A DNA stretch of 64,000 bases from the NCBI GenBank assembly GCA_041640575.1, contig JBEPZZ010000004.1:5392-69391 (forward strand). Reading direction: 5' to 3'. The DNA is from Pseudothermotoga sp. GTDB lineage: Bacteria; Thermotogota; Thermotogae; Thermotogales; DSM-5069. Each line of letters begins with the position of its first letter. Position 1 is the stretch's first letter. Shown in pieces: positions 50,596 through 63,819 of the stretch. The position numbers were made by a program, and so were the translations under genes. The notes beneath the pieces were generated by a model. That model saw only the letters and a list, made by a program, of their open reading frames with translations. It was not told the DNA's origin and did not search any database.

Positions 50596-52689
50596 TCATG
50601 AACTCGAAGTTTCATTTAGAATTTCTAGCATTATTCTTACAACCTGTGGATCGAATTGACTACCAGAACACCTAAGAAGTTCTTGCTTGGCTTCTTCTAA
50701 CGTAAAGGCTTTTCTATAAGGTCTATCTGTTGTCATCGCGTCGAAACTATCAGCAACACATATAATTCGAGAAAGAATAGGAATTGTTTCGCCACTCAAA
50801 CCATCGGGATAACCTTTTCCATCAAACCTTTCATGATGATGCCTTACTATAGCAGCAATTTCTGGCAGATCTGCAGCTATCAGCCATTCATACCCTTTTA
50901 TACTGTGAAGCTTCACCAATTGATATTCTTCGGGAGTCAAAATACCATTCTTGTTCAAAACATGCTGTGGCACATAAATTTTGCCGATATCATGCACCAG
51001 GGCGGCCCAGTAGATTCTCTTAATATCTTCATTCGCCAGGCCCATTCTTTCGGCTATCATTGAGGAATAACGGGCAACATTCTCAGAATGTCCCTTGGTG
51101 TAATAGTCATAACTTTCTAGTGCTTTCACAGCAAAAAGAATCAGTCTTTTGTGAAAGATTCCTTCTTCTTTCACATAGTTTCTAAAGGCTGAAAGATGCG
51201 CAACCAGCTCACCTAATCTTTCTATCACCTTCTTTACGAAATTGCTTATATGAGGAACTAAGATAAAAAGATAACCAAAATCTTCCTTGCCATTTGACAA
51301 ATTTGCATATATAAACTCGTTCTCTGTGAATGTGTTTAAATCAAAATGATTCCTCAGCAGACTAACCAAATCTTGTTCATCGTAGATCTCGGCAAAACGA
51401 GTGTCGGTATCTAAATAGCTGCATTTGGAATCCTCGCCCTTTAGGTTTGCGCACAAAATTATTGGTGGGCCCTTTAATAACATTCCAACAAGCTTTGCAT
51501 CGCTTACCAGAGATCGAACCACAGTTAATACTCTATGGGCAAACTCTTTTTCACTGGAAGTTCTTGCGAGCAAATCTGAGAAAATTTTGAGCATGTCAAA
51601 AATCGAGTTTTGCAAAAGCGCATTTTCGACATTAATCGACTCTAGTTCTTCATTTTTACGTGCTAATTCTTCGTTCAAAGCATTCAATTCTTGATTCTGA
51701 GCATTCAGTTCCTGGTTCATTGCTTCCAGTTCTTCATTGTTAGCCGTAAGTTGTTCGTTCATTGCTCTAACCTCTTCGTGAGCCGCTTTCAGTTCTTCAT
51801 TAGCTTTCACAAGCTGAAGCGTTCGTTGGTTAAGAAGCTTCTTTAGATAATAATTAAATAAGGACAAGATAACCAAAAATAATAAAACGCCAATCGCAGA
51901 AATTAAGCCAACCCAAAGAATCCACGGTGGAATGCGAAATGCCATGGGTATGAAAAGTGATGTTATTTTCTCTAGTTCCGACTTATCAATTTCCTTCAAA
52001 GTTTTGTTCACCAAATCAGCTAAGTTCTTGTTTGCAATGTAAAACGCGAAGTGAAGATCTTTGGTCTGCAGCGAAATGGATTCAAAACGGTAAAATAAAT
52101 CGTATTTGATAAGGTAGTACCTCGCCGTGTAATCTTCCATAACAAAAACATTAATTTCGTTGTTTCGAACTGCCTTTATCAAAGTTTCAAAATCATCATA
52201 GTAAACGACATGTGCCTTTGGATAAGAACTTTGGAGTATCCCAACGGAAGCATCCCCTCGAACAGCTCCTACAACGTATGCAGAAATGTCATTTTTGTTT
52301 TTCAATCCTGTATCTTGCCTATAATAAAGATTCACTGTGACGGAGAAGATTGGATCAGAGAATAAAAGATACTTTTGTCGTTCACTGGTTTTGAATATGA
52401 GATTGATCATATCTGCTTCGCCTTTTTCAACTTTTTCCAACGCAACGTAAAATGGTAGAACTTCGATTTTAAACTCAAGACCCGTCTTTTTCATAAGCAG
52501 TTTTATTACCTCAACACTAATACCGACAGGTTCTCCTTGTTCATCCAACCATATAAAAGGTGGGTAAAAATCGCCAGTGACAACTTTCACGGTTTTTTTA
52601 AGACCAGGAATAAATTCCGCACTGGATGCAAAATTAATAGAGCATAGTAATAACGAGAGCAATAAAATCGTAAATTGTTTCAAACTCAT
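50596..52689 (-). CDS. Membrane HD-GYP c-di-GMP phosphodiesterase with periplasmic amino-acid-binding (SBP family 3) domain
   Basis: GDFYPPF SBP motif, one TM helix, heptad coiled coil, YTKGHS, HDIGK, HHERFDGKGYPDGL, ADSFDAMTTDRPYR. Confidence 0.88.
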   Translation of the reverse strand: MSLKQFTILLLSLLLCSINFASSAEFIPGLKKTVKVVTGDFYPPFIWLDEQGEPVGISVEVIKLLMKKTGLEFKIEVLPFYVALEKVEKGEADMINLIFKTSERQKYLLFSDPIFSVTVNLYYRQDTGLKNKNDISAYVVGAVRGDASVGILQSSYPKAHVVYYDDFETLIKAVRNNEINVFVMEDYTARYYLIKYDLFYRFESISLQTKDLHFAFYIANKNLADLVNKTLKEIDKSELEKITSLFIPMAFRIPPWILWVGLISAIGVLLFLVILSLFNYYLKKLLNQRTLQLVKANEELKAAHEEVRAMNEQLTANNEELEAMNQELNAQNQELNALNEELARKNEELESINVENALLQNSIFDMLKIFSDLLARTSSEKEFAHRVLTVVRSLVSDAKLVGMLLKGPPIILCANLKGEDSKCSYLDTDTRFAEIYDEQDLVSLLRNHFDLNTFTENEFIYANLSNGKEDFGYLFILVPHISNFVKKVIERLGELVAHLSAFRNYVKEEGIFHKRLILFAVKALESYDYYTKGHSENVARYSSMIAERMGLANEDIKRIYWAALVHDIGKIYVPQHVLNKNGILTPEEYQLVKLHSIKGYEWLIAADLPEIAAIVRHHHERFDGKGYPDGLSGETIPILSRIICVADSFDAMTTDRPYRKAFTLEEAKQELLRCSGSQFDPQVVRIMLEILNETSSS
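51622..51804 (-). repeat. 21-bp (heptad) intragenic repeat encoding N-E-E-L-type units
   Basis: AGTTCTTCATT-like units at 51644, 51665, 51686, 51707, 51728, 51749, 51770 and 51791. Confidence 0.7.
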
Positions 52690-52770
52690 TCTATATTTTG
52701 GACTCAGAGGGTGTCCCCCCAAGATAGTTTGATTTTTTTAACTCGTTCTAATTATACTACAACGTAATGT

Positions 52771-52779
52771 TGATATAAT
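52771..52779 (+). promoter_or_regulatory. Extended -10 promoter for proS-ftsY
   Basis: TGATATAAT (TGnTATAAT), 29 nt upstream of the proS ATG. Confidence 0.5.
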
Positions 52780-52807
52780 GATTAAGATAAAAATGGAGGT
52801 GTTGTTG

Positions 52808-57915: not shown

Positions 57916-58341
57916 GTGGGTATAACAATCAAGAGTGAGTATGCCATGAGGATAATGATGCATCTTGCAGGCTGTGGCCAAAACAATCCTGTTTCACTGA
58001 CAAGCATTTTGAAGGAAGCAAAAGTTCCGAAGGAATTTGCGGAGAAAATTGTATCTGATTTGAGAAAAGCAAAACTTATAGCTTCGGCACGAGGAAGAAA
58101 GGGAGGATATCAGTTAACTAAACCACCGAGTCAAATGACTGTTTTTGAGATCATGGAAGCTGTTGATGAACCACGCAAAATAATCAAATGTAATTTTAAC
58201 GAAGAATGCTGTAGTGATCCGGAAAGCTGTGCGATCAAGAATATTGTTTGGCAAAATCTTTGGAATAGCATCGTTTCGACACTTAAATCAATAAGCCTTC
58301 AGGAACTTGTGAATTATTGCCATCAAGGGGTGGAAAAATGA
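57916..58341 (+). CDS. Rrf2-family transcriptional regulator
   Basis: SEYAMR, SARGRKGGYQL.KPP..MTVFEIMEAVD, C-terminal Cys cluster. Confidence 0.9.
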   Translation: MGITIKSEYAMRIMMHLAGCGQNNPVSLTSILKEAKVPKEFAEKIVSDLRKAKLIASARGRKGGYQLTKPPSQMTVFEIMEAVDEPRKIIKCNFNEECCSDPESCAIKNIVWQNLWNSIVSTLKSISLQELVNYCHQGVEK

Positions 58342-60843: not shown

Positions 60844-61116
60844 TTATTCGAACATAACATTGGTTATTATCACAATATAACCGTTATGTTCTTCGAAATC
60901 GACCTTAACTTTTTGTGGATCAACTTTAAAAGTATCGCTCACCCAATCGACAATTCTTTGCCTGATCTTTTCAGAATTTTCTTCAAACTCACTCTTTGGT
61001 ATAACCTCAGTCACAGCAACTGGTCTACGGCGTTCCAAGATCGTCTCCAATCTTTTATAAGCCGTTTCTCTACTTTTCTCCCTCTTTTTTCTTTTGAACA
61101 ATCCAAAGAACCACAT
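60844..61116 (-). CDS. Probable divergent MinE-like protein
   Basis: 90 aa directly after minD; N-terminal amphipathic MWFFGLFKRK, then SRETAYKRLETIL resembling the MinE anti-MinCD helix. Confidence 0.55.
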   Translation of the reverse strand: MWFFGLFKRKKREKSRETAYKRLETILERRRPVAVTEVIPKSEFEENSEKIRQRIVDWVSDTFKVDPQKVKVDFEEHNGYIVIITNVMFE

Positions 61117-61122
61117 CGTCTC

Positions 61123-61938
61123 TCATCCCCTTTTCCTTCCGAAGAGGTTCTTGAAGAAGGATAAAAGACCCTTTCCAGACATCTGAGCTATATCTTCTTC
61201 CACAGGAATATCTTCTCCCTTTATCCTCTTTGCGATGTTTTCGAAAACCTTTGATATACCAAAGTCCCCATTTAAAACCACGGGAAGACCTTTGTTTGTT
61301 GCTATAATGACCTCTTCGGAATCCGGGACAACACCAATAATCTCAAGTGCAAGCGTAGATTGTACGTCGTCCTGTGTTAACATTTCGCCAGCTTTAACCA
61401 TTTTTATTTTGAATCGGTTCAAAATAACCTTCATTGATTTTTCAGTGAAACCAAAATTTTCCAGTAATCCCACCACTCTGTCGGCATCTGAAAGCGCTGG
61501 AAGTTCAGGTGTAGTTACAATCAAAGCTAACTCAGCTGGTGCTACCGCGTTTCTAAATCCTCTTTCTATACCTGCAGGAGAATCAATAATGATGTAATCG
61601 AAATTGGGATACAAAGCTTTCACAATTGCTTTCATATCCTCTGGGGAAACCATTTCCTTTGTTGCAACTTGAGATGCAGCAAGCAAATAGAGATTTCTGA
61701 GTTGTTTATGTCGAACCAATGCCTCGTGAGGATTTACCTTCCCATTAACAACATCAAGCAGAGTATAAACGACTCGATTCTCAAGACCAAGTACTACATC
61801 AAGATTTTTCAATCCGATGTCGGCATCGATAAGGCATACCTTTTCACCAAACTTAGCAAGCGTACAACCAAGGTTTGCTACTACTGTTGTTTTCCCCACA
61901 CCACCTTTCCCGGACGTTACAACAAAAACCCTTGCCAC
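61123..61938 (-). CDS. minD: Septum site-determining ATPase
   Basis: VTSGKGGVGKTT, DADIGLKNLD, IDSPAGIE, C-terminal amphipathic LLSFFKNLFG; GTG start 61938. Confidence 0.96.
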   Translation of the reverse strand: MARVFVVTSGKGGVGKTTVVANLGCTLAKFGEKVCLIDADIGLKNLDVVLGLENRVVYTLLDVVNGKVNPHEALVRHKQLRNLYLLAASQVATKEMVSPEDMKAIVKALYPNFDYIIIDSPAGIERGFRNAVAPAELALIVTTPELPALSDADRVVGLLENFGFTEKSMKVILNRFKIKMVKAGEMLTQDDVQSTLALEIIGVVPDSEEVIIATNKGLPVVLNGDFGISKVFENIAKRIKGEDIPVEEDIAQMSGKGLLSFFKNLFGRKRG

Positions 61939-61977
61939 ATTACCACCACCTTTGTTTCGGAAGATCCTTTTTGAATA

Positions 61978-62374
61978 AATTCTACCACACACATTATCGC
62001 TATTTTCACAGTTTACCACCACAAGATATTGTGGTGGTAAATAACTTCGTCAACATATTGATAAGGTGGTAGAAAACTTTCGAAGCGCTCATAAATAAAG
62101 CATTTTTGGTGGTAGAAATCTCTAAAGATACGATTTAGAAAGAATTTTCTTTGCTCAAATATATGTTAGACAAATTCAATAGATAGATGATTTTGCTCTA
62201 TTTAAGAGTCAAAGAAGTTTTCTACCACCAATTTTTGCTTTTCTGAAGCATGTTTTAGAAGTTATCTACCACTTATCTACCAGTTTTCTACCACCTTTTC
62301 TACCACCCCTTTTACAGTCGTTTCCTCACACTGCAAGCTAATTTTGAAATACTATACTTGAGTTTTCTACCACC
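61978..62374. other. Candidate chromosomal replication origin (oriC): Thermotoga-type DnaA-box cluster with AT-rich core
   Basis: Perfect TTTTCTACCACC at 62065(-), 62218, 62284, 62296 and 62363; variants at 61978, 62108(-), 62262 and 62273; AT-rich stretch 62120-62215; similar to the T. maritima DnaA box AAACCTACCACC. Confidence 0.72.
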
Positions 62375-62438
62375 CTATATATTTTCAACTACTAAGTAAA
62401 AGATTGGAGTAAAATATCATTTAGTAGAAAGGGGGATT

Positions 62439-63194
62439 ATGATGAGAAAACTTTTCTTATTTGTCATTCTAACAGCTGTTCCTATGATCCTCAGTGCTAC
62501 AAATTCTGTTGAATTGGAAAACATGTTAGTTCACTACCGCTCCTTAAGACTTGAAGAAGAAATGCTTCAACTCATAGATGTTCTTGAAGATGTTCTTGAA
62601 AAAACACCTCAAGATGGCTACATTTTGGCTATGTTGTGTGAAGCGTTAACAGAATATGAGATATGGGCAAAAATACCAGAAAGTGAGAAAGTAAAGTTTT
62701 ACGAAAAAGCTGTGGTAACTGGGAAGAAAGCAGCCGAAATGTTACCAAGTAGCTCTTACGCCAACTTTGTTGCAGGAGCTGCAATAGGAAGGTTAGCACA
62801 ATTTAAAGGAATAATTCAAAGTCTTTTTATGCTTGGTGACTTTGACAAGTACATTCAAAAAGCAATAGAACTTGATCCGAAGAATTACAGGGCTTTAATC
62901 GCAATGGGAATGAGATACAGAGATACGCCTTGGCCTTTTAGGGATTTAAAGAAATCAGAAGAATATTTTTTGAAAGCAATAGAAGCTGAACCTGGTTACA
63001 TAAACAGTTACTATGAATTAGCACTATTGTATGAGGAAATGGCAAAAGCATCAAGAAGCAAAGAAGAAAAGGATAACTACCTTACAAAAGCAAAGGAGCT
63101 GTACGAGAGAATACTTGAAATGGAACCTCATCCACAATGGATAAAGCAAGGACTTGAAACGAAGGAGATAGTTGCCAAAAAAATAGGGAAATGA
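62439..63194 (+). CDS. Secreted TPR-repeat protein
   Basis: Signal peptide; TPR-like KAIELDPKNYRA, KAIEAEPGYINSYYELA. Confidence 0.78.
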   Translation: MMRKLFLFVILTAVPMILSATNSVELENMLVHYRSLRLEEEMLQLIDVLEDVLEKTPQDGYILAMLCEALTEYEIWAKIPESEKVKFYEKAVVTGKKAAEMLPSSSYANFVAGAAIGRLAQFKGIIQSLFMLGDFDKYIQKAIELDPKNYRALIAMGMRYRDTPWPFRDLKKSEEYFLKAIEAEPGYINSYYELALLYEEMAKASRSKEEKDNYLTKAKELYERILEMEPHPQWIKQGLETKEIVAKKIGK

Positions 63195-63216: not shown

Positions 63217-63819
63217 ATGCTAGCGAAGTACTGGATGAATCCGGATTTTCCATACGTGAAACTGGGAACAACGGTTCAGGAAGCTCTTTCAGTTATGAGA
63301 AAAAGTAGAACACCCTATTGTGTACTTGTAGACGAGAGCATGGTCTTCCAAGGTTTTATTTACCGAAATAACCTGGCGGAGGTTCAAATGGAAGCCTCTG
63401 TTGATGATTATGTCACTTTTCCCGATTACTACGTCTATGAAGACAGTTATATTGAAGAAGTAGCTTTGACATTTCGCGAGTCACAGGAAACTTGTTTAGC
63501 TGTTGTAGATAAGAATCTTGTTATGAAAGGTGTGTTAACTCTGGCAGAGATTCTTGATGCATTTGTTGCAATGACTGCTATGGATGAACCTGGCACACGA
63601 ATCCTTCTCAAATTAGAAGATAAACCTGGCGAACTAAAAAAGGTTTTCGATGTTTTGGCACTCAACAAGATGAACGTTTTAGCTGTTAATACTGTAAGGG
63701 GAAATGGATATAGAAAAGTGTCGATAAAAGTTGATACTCCAAACCCAAAGGATGTCGAGAAAGTACTACAAACCTTTGGAGTTAATTTTGACTTGCTGGC
63801 AAAGGAGGAGGGATTCTGA
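63217..63819 (+). CDS. CBS-pair + ACT domain protein (AcuB-like)
   Basis: Two CBS-like repeats; ACT motif LEDKPGELKKV. Confidence 0.82.
   Translation: MLAKYWMNPDFPYVKLGTTVQEALSVMRKSRTPYCVLVDESMVFQGFIYRNNLAEVQMEASVDDYVTFPDYYVYEDSYIEEVALTFRESQETCLAVVDKNLVMKGVLTLAEILDAFVAMTAMDEPGTRILLKLEDKPGELKKVFDVLALNKMNVLAVNTVRGNGYRKVSIKVDTPNPKDVEKVLQTFGVNFDLLAKEEGF

Follow-up and report, generated by a model that had tools for sequence, protein, structure and literature searches.

The closest described system is the replication origin of Thermotoga maritima, tma-oriC, which spans nt 156,992-157,474 and contains ten DnaA boxes (PMC10316083). The T. maritima DnaA box was described as the 12-mer AAACCTACCACC and later shortened to the 9-mer ACCTACCAC (PMC10316083, PMC13643167). 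A first-pass annotation of the DNA studied here had named a non-canonical 12-mer for this protein, in agreement with these two papers. Minimal tma-oriC is 149 bp long and comprises a 24-bp DNA unwinding element (DUE) plus boxes 1-5, with box 2 inverted (PMC10316083). Within the DUE, a block of three TAG repeats is essential, and scrambling it abolished unwinding (PMC10316083); a TTATT motif and the box-proximal DnaA-trio assist in unwinding (PMC10316083, PMC13643167). Our literature search found no paper on the oriC of Pseudothermotoga or Fervidobacterium.

We analyzed a 64-kb window of Pseudothermotoga sp. DNA, corresponding to positions 5392-69391 of contig C4 in a 123-contig, 1.97-Mb draft genome. 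Relatives retrieved with MinD identify the organism as Pseudothermotoga-like. The first-pass annotation had listed five perfect copies of TTTTCTACCACC and four variants in the region between minD and a TPR-repeat gene, and had interpreted them as the chromosomal origin. Sequence reading of 61700-62700 and a 12-mer pattern search confirmed the five perfect copies at the same coordinates and all four variants (Table 1). The variant at 61978 is probably no member of the array and coincides with an extended -10-like element of minD. The same TGTGGTAAAAT / TGTGGTA(A/G)AAT element is found 45-60 nt upstream of minD in L001-L008 and in the complete same-genus genome G092, including genomes that carry no array at that place. 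Because it is conserved upstream of minD in relatives without the array, the 61978 element is probably the minD extended -10 and lies outside the array. Two weaker boxes, TTATTTACCACC and CAGTTTACCACC, had been overlooked. There are approximately 11 asymmetric boxes with a CTACCAC-type core in 62009-62374, the left group on the minus strand and the right group on the plus strand, such that both are directed away from the 98-bp spacer, as had been described.

Table 1. Features of the candidate origin and its flanks, in window coordinates. Negative offsets are distances from box 1.
Feature	Coordinates	Strand	Remarks
minE	60844-61116		Follows minD; Pfam MinE
minD	61123-61938	-	Probable GTG start at 61938; Pfam CbiA/ParA/MinD-type ATPase; left flank, transcribed away from the candidate origin
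Intergenic region	61938-62439		Probable GTG start of minD (-) to ATG of TPR gene
minD extended -10-like element, TGTGGTAGAATT	61978-61989	-	Reads as box variant AATTCTACCACA; TGTGGTAGAAT on the minD strand
Palindrome TTTACCACCACAAGATATTGTGGTGGTAAA	62009-62044		Holds weak boxes CAGTTTACCACC (+) at 62009 and TTATTTACCACC (-) at 62033
Left box group, TTTTCTACCACC and ATTTCTACCACC	62065-62076 and 62108-62119	-	-298 and -255
AT-rich spacer, 98 bp	62120-62217		Between the opposed box groups; from box spacing, alignment and stability profile
Box at -145, TTTTCTACCACC	62218-62229	+	Counterpart of T. maritima box 6 (-142)
Four head-to-tail boxes, TTATCTACCACT, TTATCTACCAGT, TTTTCTACCACC and TTTTCTACCACC	62262-62307 (starts 62262, 62273, 62284, 62296)	+	11-12 bp spacing; -101, -90, -79, -67
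Box 1, TTTTCTACCACC	62363-62374	+	Abuts candidate unwinding element
Candidate DNA unwinding element	62375 to ~62420	-	Homology to T. maritima DUE; duplex stability
TPR-repeat gene	62439-63194	+	Pfam TPR families; between candidate DUE and CBS-ACT gene
CBS-CBS-ACT gene	63217-63819	+	Pfam CBS and ACT; blastp synteny

The array is unique in the genome. With up to two mismatches allowed, the 12-mer has 19 matches in the 64-kb window compared to 6.9 ± 2.2 in shuffled sequence, and none of 100 shuffles reached 19. Genome-wide counts bear out the unique clustering that had been anticipated, with no denser cluster elsewhere: five of the six perfect 12-mer copies in the 123-contig, 1.97-Mb draft fall in the array, and the CTACCAC core occurs eight times within 500 bp at the array and at most twice in any other 500-bp stretch. 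A second cluster is absent from this genome and from G092, indicating that the array is single-copy.

We then compared the array with its relatives by measuring box starts from the outermost box (box 1), with all loci turned the same way and inverted boxes marked by <. The T. maritima genome in our set (G138, a 1,860,725-bp contig) carries its array at 157.03-157.44 kb, matching the published tma-oriC. Box starts in the window are -67, -79, -90, -101, -145, <-255, <-298 and <-330; those of T. maritima are <-64, -78, -89, -100, -142 and <-249; and those of three genomes of genus group g4 are -66, -78, -89, -100, -144, <-254, <-298 and <-331. In the common layout, about 65 bp separate box 1 from three tandem boxes set 11 bp apart; box 6 follows after about another 42-44 bp, and the opposed box 7 stands about 107-110 bp past box 6, measured between box starts. 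The first three tandem boxes of the window correspond to T. maritima boxes 5, 4 and 3 (-100, -89, -78), the box at 62108 is the counterpart of box 7 (-249), and the weak minus-strand box at 62033 (-330) is the counterpart of the -331 box in the g4 genomes. The fourth tandem box (-67) is a direct copy at the place where T. maritima has the inverted box 2 (-64). The relative positions of boxes 1 and 3-7 agree with T. maritima to within 1-6 bp, and this layout is common to every Pseudothermotoga-like genome examined. Our main argument for regarding the array as the orthologue of tma-oriC is that the agreement is box for box, and that footprinting and in vitro unwinding have been achieved with the T. 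maritima origin. The stretch 62009-62420 is very probably oriC, the single chromosomal origin of this organism.

We searched 151 genomes of the class Thermotogae for three TACCAC cores lying close together, and 37 of them carried such arrays. Of the 58 genomes of the same order searched, 33 gave matches, usually with a single locus in each genome; matches also occurred in 4 of the 93 genomes from other orders, and none of the latter resembled the arrays described here. The other orders were searched and lack such arrays, and therefore their origins presumably use another box. Tandem TACCAC arrays were limited to one order, which comprises the families of Thermotoga and of the Pseudothermotoga-like genomes.

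Several other sequence features accompany the boxes. The palindrome in the window has 13-bp arms (TTTACCACCACAA-GATA-TTGTGGTGGTAAA). A ACAAnATATTGT motif is kept beside the outermost left-hand boxes in all Pseudothermotoga-like origins (the window and six further loci); it may serve as a promoter directed toward the origin or be bound by another protein. T. maritima, G139, G091, G092 and g4 genomes share a (G)CATCAGAA / GATTAGAA motif in the interval from box 1 to the tandem boxes, and it recurs after box 7; in a comparison of four loci, CACTGCAAG stands instead of this motif at 62308-62362 of the window. The isolated boxes have a TTT(T/C)AGAAG upstream flank in common. An Rfam scan of 61500-62900 gave no RNA family match at E ≤ 1, and the result of a sigma-70 promoter and terminator scan was not above chance.

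We next considered where the DNA would open. On its minus strand, the stretch past box 1 reads ...TTAC TTAGTAG TTGAAAATATATAG and then box 1, and the corresponding order in T. maritima is TTATT - TAGTAGTAG - AAATAATA - box 1. A CTA/TAG run follows box 1 in all the relatives aligned, with two TAG repeats in the window, three in T. maritima and 3-5 in relatives. The lower number in the window weighs against the origin assignment, given the loss of unwinding on scrambling of the three-repeat block in T. maritima. Read as trios from box 1, the sequence is TAG TAG TTG AAA ATA TAT, in which three of the first four triplets fit 5'-[T/A]A[G/A]-3' and the rest do not; the register relative to the box varies between genera. 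In a nearest-neighbor scan of the whole intergenic region, duplex stability was lowest next to box 1, both for 24-mers (62376-62399) and for 40-mers (62377-62416). Because the T. maritima DUE lies past box 1 and the least stable stretch is found there, we place the DUE, with reasonable confidence, at 62375 to about 62420. This candidate element overlaps the promoter/RBS region of the rightward operon. Separately, 62421-62430 (TTAGTAGAAA) was considered as a decayed inverted box matching an extra box in G092, and was rejected when alignment placed the stretch in the RBS region.

The first-pass annotation had instead called the AT-rich stretch 62120-62215 a core, implying that it is the functional center, which corresponds to a bilateral origin that unwinds at a central DUE. 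The stability values are close: the least stable 40-mer of the spacer (62155-62194) was reported at -41.7 kcal/mol and ranked near second, nearly as unstable as the outer 40-mer at -41.3 kcal/mol. The spacer also contains TAGATAGATGA, and its conserved length (box starts 107-110 bp apart across genera) points to some constraint. However, the homologous 95-bp spacer of T. maritima lies outside the 149-bp minimal oriC, and specific unwinding there needs the DUE past box 1 with its TAG repeats. Moreover, the spacer is poorly conserved in sequence, whereas the CTA/TAG run stands beside box 1 in every relative. Central opening is therefore improbable, and the AT-rich stretch is not supported as the functional center. 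The 98-bp spacer, constant in length but free in sequence, may instead have a structural role, being wrapped or looped so as to link the two DnaA subcomplexes.

The first-pass annotation had also predicted that a cumulative GC-skew minimum would map to the array. In G092, the raw cumulative GC, AT, RY and MK skews and the cumulative gene orientation show no V shape. Across the window (1-64000), the sign of the raw GC skew changes at intervals of a few kb as genes switch orientation, the coding strand being G- and A-rich. Because raw GC skew follows gene orientation, the replication skew is fully masked unless orientation is corrected for. We therefore took, for each long ORF, third-codon-position G-C+T-A minus the genome-wide coding-strand mean, and projected this value onto the plus strand. 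The corrected statistic holds one sign over whole contigs elsewhere in the same genome, which indicates that it is a real signal. In T. maritima, we sampled 20 bins of 20 kb over 0-904 kb. A GC3 version took negative values in each of the four bins before 157 kb and positive values in 14 of the 16 beyond it; this control recovers the published origin and thereby validates the method. On C4, the cumulative corrected skew drops steadily from 0 to -938 up to minD and reaches its minimum of -969 at the TPR gene, just to the right of the array. It then flattens and climbs to -835 at the contig end, a weak slope over the 27 kb available. Thus, the raw skew was uninformative, but the corrected third-position skew has its minimum at the array, in what the draft assembly permits as a local test only. 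Together, the tma-oriC box layout, the uniqueness of the array and the turn in corrected skew strongly support the proposal that the array is the chromosomal origin.

The corrected skew of G092 has a local minimum exactly at its own array, at 273 kb. As assembled, this genome shows no genome-wide V at the array, and its plus strand is leading-like from ~1,513 kb through zero to ~1,083 kb, or about 75% of the chromosome. An IS-like repeat, which has about 25 copies with a 114-bp conserved end in G092 and is absent from the genome of the window, occurs as inverted copies next to both anomalous switch points, at ~250-255 kb and ~1,511-1,513 kb. When a single inversion is undone, G092 yields a plain V with a best-fit origin at 1,494.7 kb, 1.5 kb from the array at 1,493.2 kb. 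This inversion was proposed post hoc, after the data had been seen, and is the likeliest explanation for the G092 skew; the anomaly would reflect an assembly error or else an inversion of 1.26 Mb that arose very recently.

We also attempted to order the contigs of the draft on G092 as a pseudo-chromosome. This was dropped, given ~73% nucleotide identity, many rearrangements and a breakpoint 9.5 kb to the left of the array. That synteny breakpoint lies at 52590-52800 of the window (C4 ~57,984-58,185): C4 1-58 kb corresponds to 1,668-1,748 kb of G092, and C4 58-94 kb to 262.7-299 kb. In G092, the IS-like repeat is present at 1,748.5 kb and at 265.6 kb, next to both synteny breakpoints. The third-position skew of the G092 1,668-1,748 kb block has the opposite sign in the genome of the window.

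The genes around the array vary more than the array itself. The minD gene is 92% identical to G092 minD at the syntenic place, and in genus groups g1, g3 and g4 of this family the origin has the CBS-ACT gene as its conserved right-hand neighbor. The order minD - origin - CBS-ACT is found in g1 and g3; g4 keeps CBS-ACT and has minD elsewhere. The minD-side location does differ from T. maritima, as had been noted, since yceD and a LUD-domain gene flank oriC there. As a clade-wide feature, however, adjacency to minD fails: among the loci of relatives compared, it holds in g1 and g3 but not in g4, Thermotoga or g5. Because the arrangement changes between genus groups, minD adjacency is a local feature and no property of the origin. 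The TPR gene (GC 36.4% vs 39.5%) is missing at this place in G092, where the CBS gene directly follows the origin, and its nearest G092 homologue (44% identity) is found at 1,515 kb. That homologue lies 2 kb from the G092 global skew minimum at 1,513 kb. The TPR gene encodes an N-terminal signal-like segment and apparently uses the promoter/RBS region of the CBS-ACT gene. An intact dnaA gene (440 aa) lies on contig C74 and the array on C4, in keeping with the earlier view that the origin is not beside dnaA, and in every relative dnaA is 90-790 kb from the array.

The location between two divergent operons, with one box-like element overlapping the minD -10, is also what could be expected of a DnaA locus that is not an origin, either a titration or regulatory site of the datA/DARS type or DnaA-controlled promoters of minD and the CBS operon, with the origin lying elsewhere. 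The absence of a genome-wide skew turn at the array in G092 as assembled is in line with this possibility. However, each genome has one box cluster and thus offers no second candidate, and DnaA opens the orthologous T. maritima sequence in vitro. In addition, skew turns at the array both on its own contig and in the T. maritima control, and the array is kept while flanking genes change between genera. We therefore regard a non-origin DnaA locus as highly improbable. Least probable of all is a reading of the repeats as iterons or as binding sites of some protein besides DnaA, such as one belonging to an integrated plasmid or phage replicon, or the CBS-ACT protein. In favor of it, 11-12-bp direct-repeat arrays look like iterons and the CBS-ACT gene is a conserved neighbor in three genus groups. 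However, no rep, integrase or mobile-element gene is adjacent (ORF list and Pfam), and the core matches exactly that of the T. maritima DnaA box defined by footprinting. The array also occurs once per genome of the order with differing neighbors, with no CBS-ACT gene beside the Thermotoga array.

For the array as oriC, homology to described origins suggests the following sequence of events. ATP-DnaA, encoded on another contig, would bind the boxes, and its subunits would line up head to tail in an oligomer over the tandem four (62262-62307) and box 1. The oligomer would then melt the neighboring least stable stretch, 62375 to ~62420, and the TAG-bearing minus strand would be held as single-stranded DNA (ssDUE recruitment), leading to helicase loading. 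The opposed left boxes (62033-62119), past the 98-bp spacer, are candidates for a second DnaA subcomplex outside the minimal unwinding unit.

The boxes themselves have diverged from those of T. maritima. The window consensus, TTCTACCAC, matches the published 9-mer at seven of nine positions, which counts against an identical box but not against orthology. Positions 1 and 2 of the 9-mer differ consistently in g1, g2 and g4, and a TT[T/A]TC flank replaces AAACC throughout the clade, so the idea of a lineage-specific variant of the T. maritima box is upheld. We aligned DnaA residues to E. coli D433-H439 through PDB 1J1V and compared them with the boxes. Groups g1, g2 and g4 pair the box TT[T/A]TCTACCAC with the helix SHPTVSH, g3 pairs AAAT[T/C]TACCAC with SHPTVSN, and Thermotoga pairs AAACCTACCAC with SHPVV[V/A]D. 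In g5, the box is AAA[C/T]TTACCAC and the helix varies by genome (KTHPSVINS, KSHPAVISA, KSHPTVLSS). The residue aligned to E. coli H439 is His in g1, g2 and g4, Asn in g3 and Asp in Thermotoga. Box flank and DnaA helix change together, in only three to four independent transitions, and the outermost positions of the T. maritima box were reported to have no effect on affinity (PMC10316083). Because the transitions are few and the outermost positions lack an affinity effect, we raise only tentatively, and as rather unlikely, the idea that the g1/g2/g4 clade re-tuned DnaA specificity together with its boxes. If this were true, the DnaA proteins of T. maritima and of this organism would not be interchangeable on each other's origins, and naturally graded variation across the order could be used to dissect how DnaA reads the 5' half of a 12-mer box. 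The box versions that bear on such co-variation are TTTTCTACCACC, AAACCTACCACC and AAATTTACCACC.

The window origin is a Thermotoga-type oriC with a clade-specific box flank, and involves no new mechanism. This assignment would fix the origin of a Pseudothermotoga-like lineage, in which neither the location of dnaA nor raw GC skew nor TTATCCACA-based searches give an answer. The comparison also indicates that at least three families of Thermotogales retain the architecture of the T. maritima origin, with its boxes alike in number, order and phasing, while the flanking genes and the 5' half of the box drift. These loci offer natural variants for the T. maritima in vitro system: box 2 can be direct or inverted, the TAG repeats number from two to five, and each of three types of box flank goes with its own type of DnaA helix. 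In annotation work, a search for clusters of CTACCAC or TTACCAC cores would locate the origin throughout the order.

Two other known origins share parts of this organization. As in E. coli oriC, with its Left-DOR and Right-DOR, the window has two opposed DnaA-box clusters with the candidate DUE at the outer end of one, and its box shares the CCAC portion of TTATCCACA. Unlike the E. coli origin, the window has no known IHF site and uses a 12-mer box with another 5' half, and box spacing and number differ. In the basal unwinding system of B. subtilis oriC (boxes 6-7 and DnaA-trios; Richardson et al. 2016/2019, PMC6669920), a box is likewise followed directly by 5'-TAG-3'-type trinucleotides on one strand, in the least stable stretch. 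The presumed mechanism, in which a box-seeded DnaA oligomer captures one strand, would also be alike. In contrast to B. subtilis, the window box is not TTATCCACA, the window origin is not beside dnaA, and its trio run (TAG TAG TTG AAA ATA...) is short and eroded.

The closest counterpart is T. maritima oriC. The two differ in the 5' flank of the box (AAACC in T. maritima, TT[T/A]TC in the window), at the box 2 position (an inverted versus a direct copy), in the number of TAG repeats (three versus two), in their flanks (yceD and a LUD-domain gene versus minD and TPR/CBS-ACT) and in the DnaA recognition helix (SHPVVVD versus SHPTVSH). They have in common the asymmetric CTACCAC(C) core, the full set of boxes 1 and 3-7 placed alike to within 1-6 bp, and an opposed second box group behind a spacer that sets box starts 107-110 bp apart. 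In both, an AT-rich unwinding element with TAG repeats, a candidate in the window, lies directly past box 1, and the array is unique in the genome and remote from dnaA.
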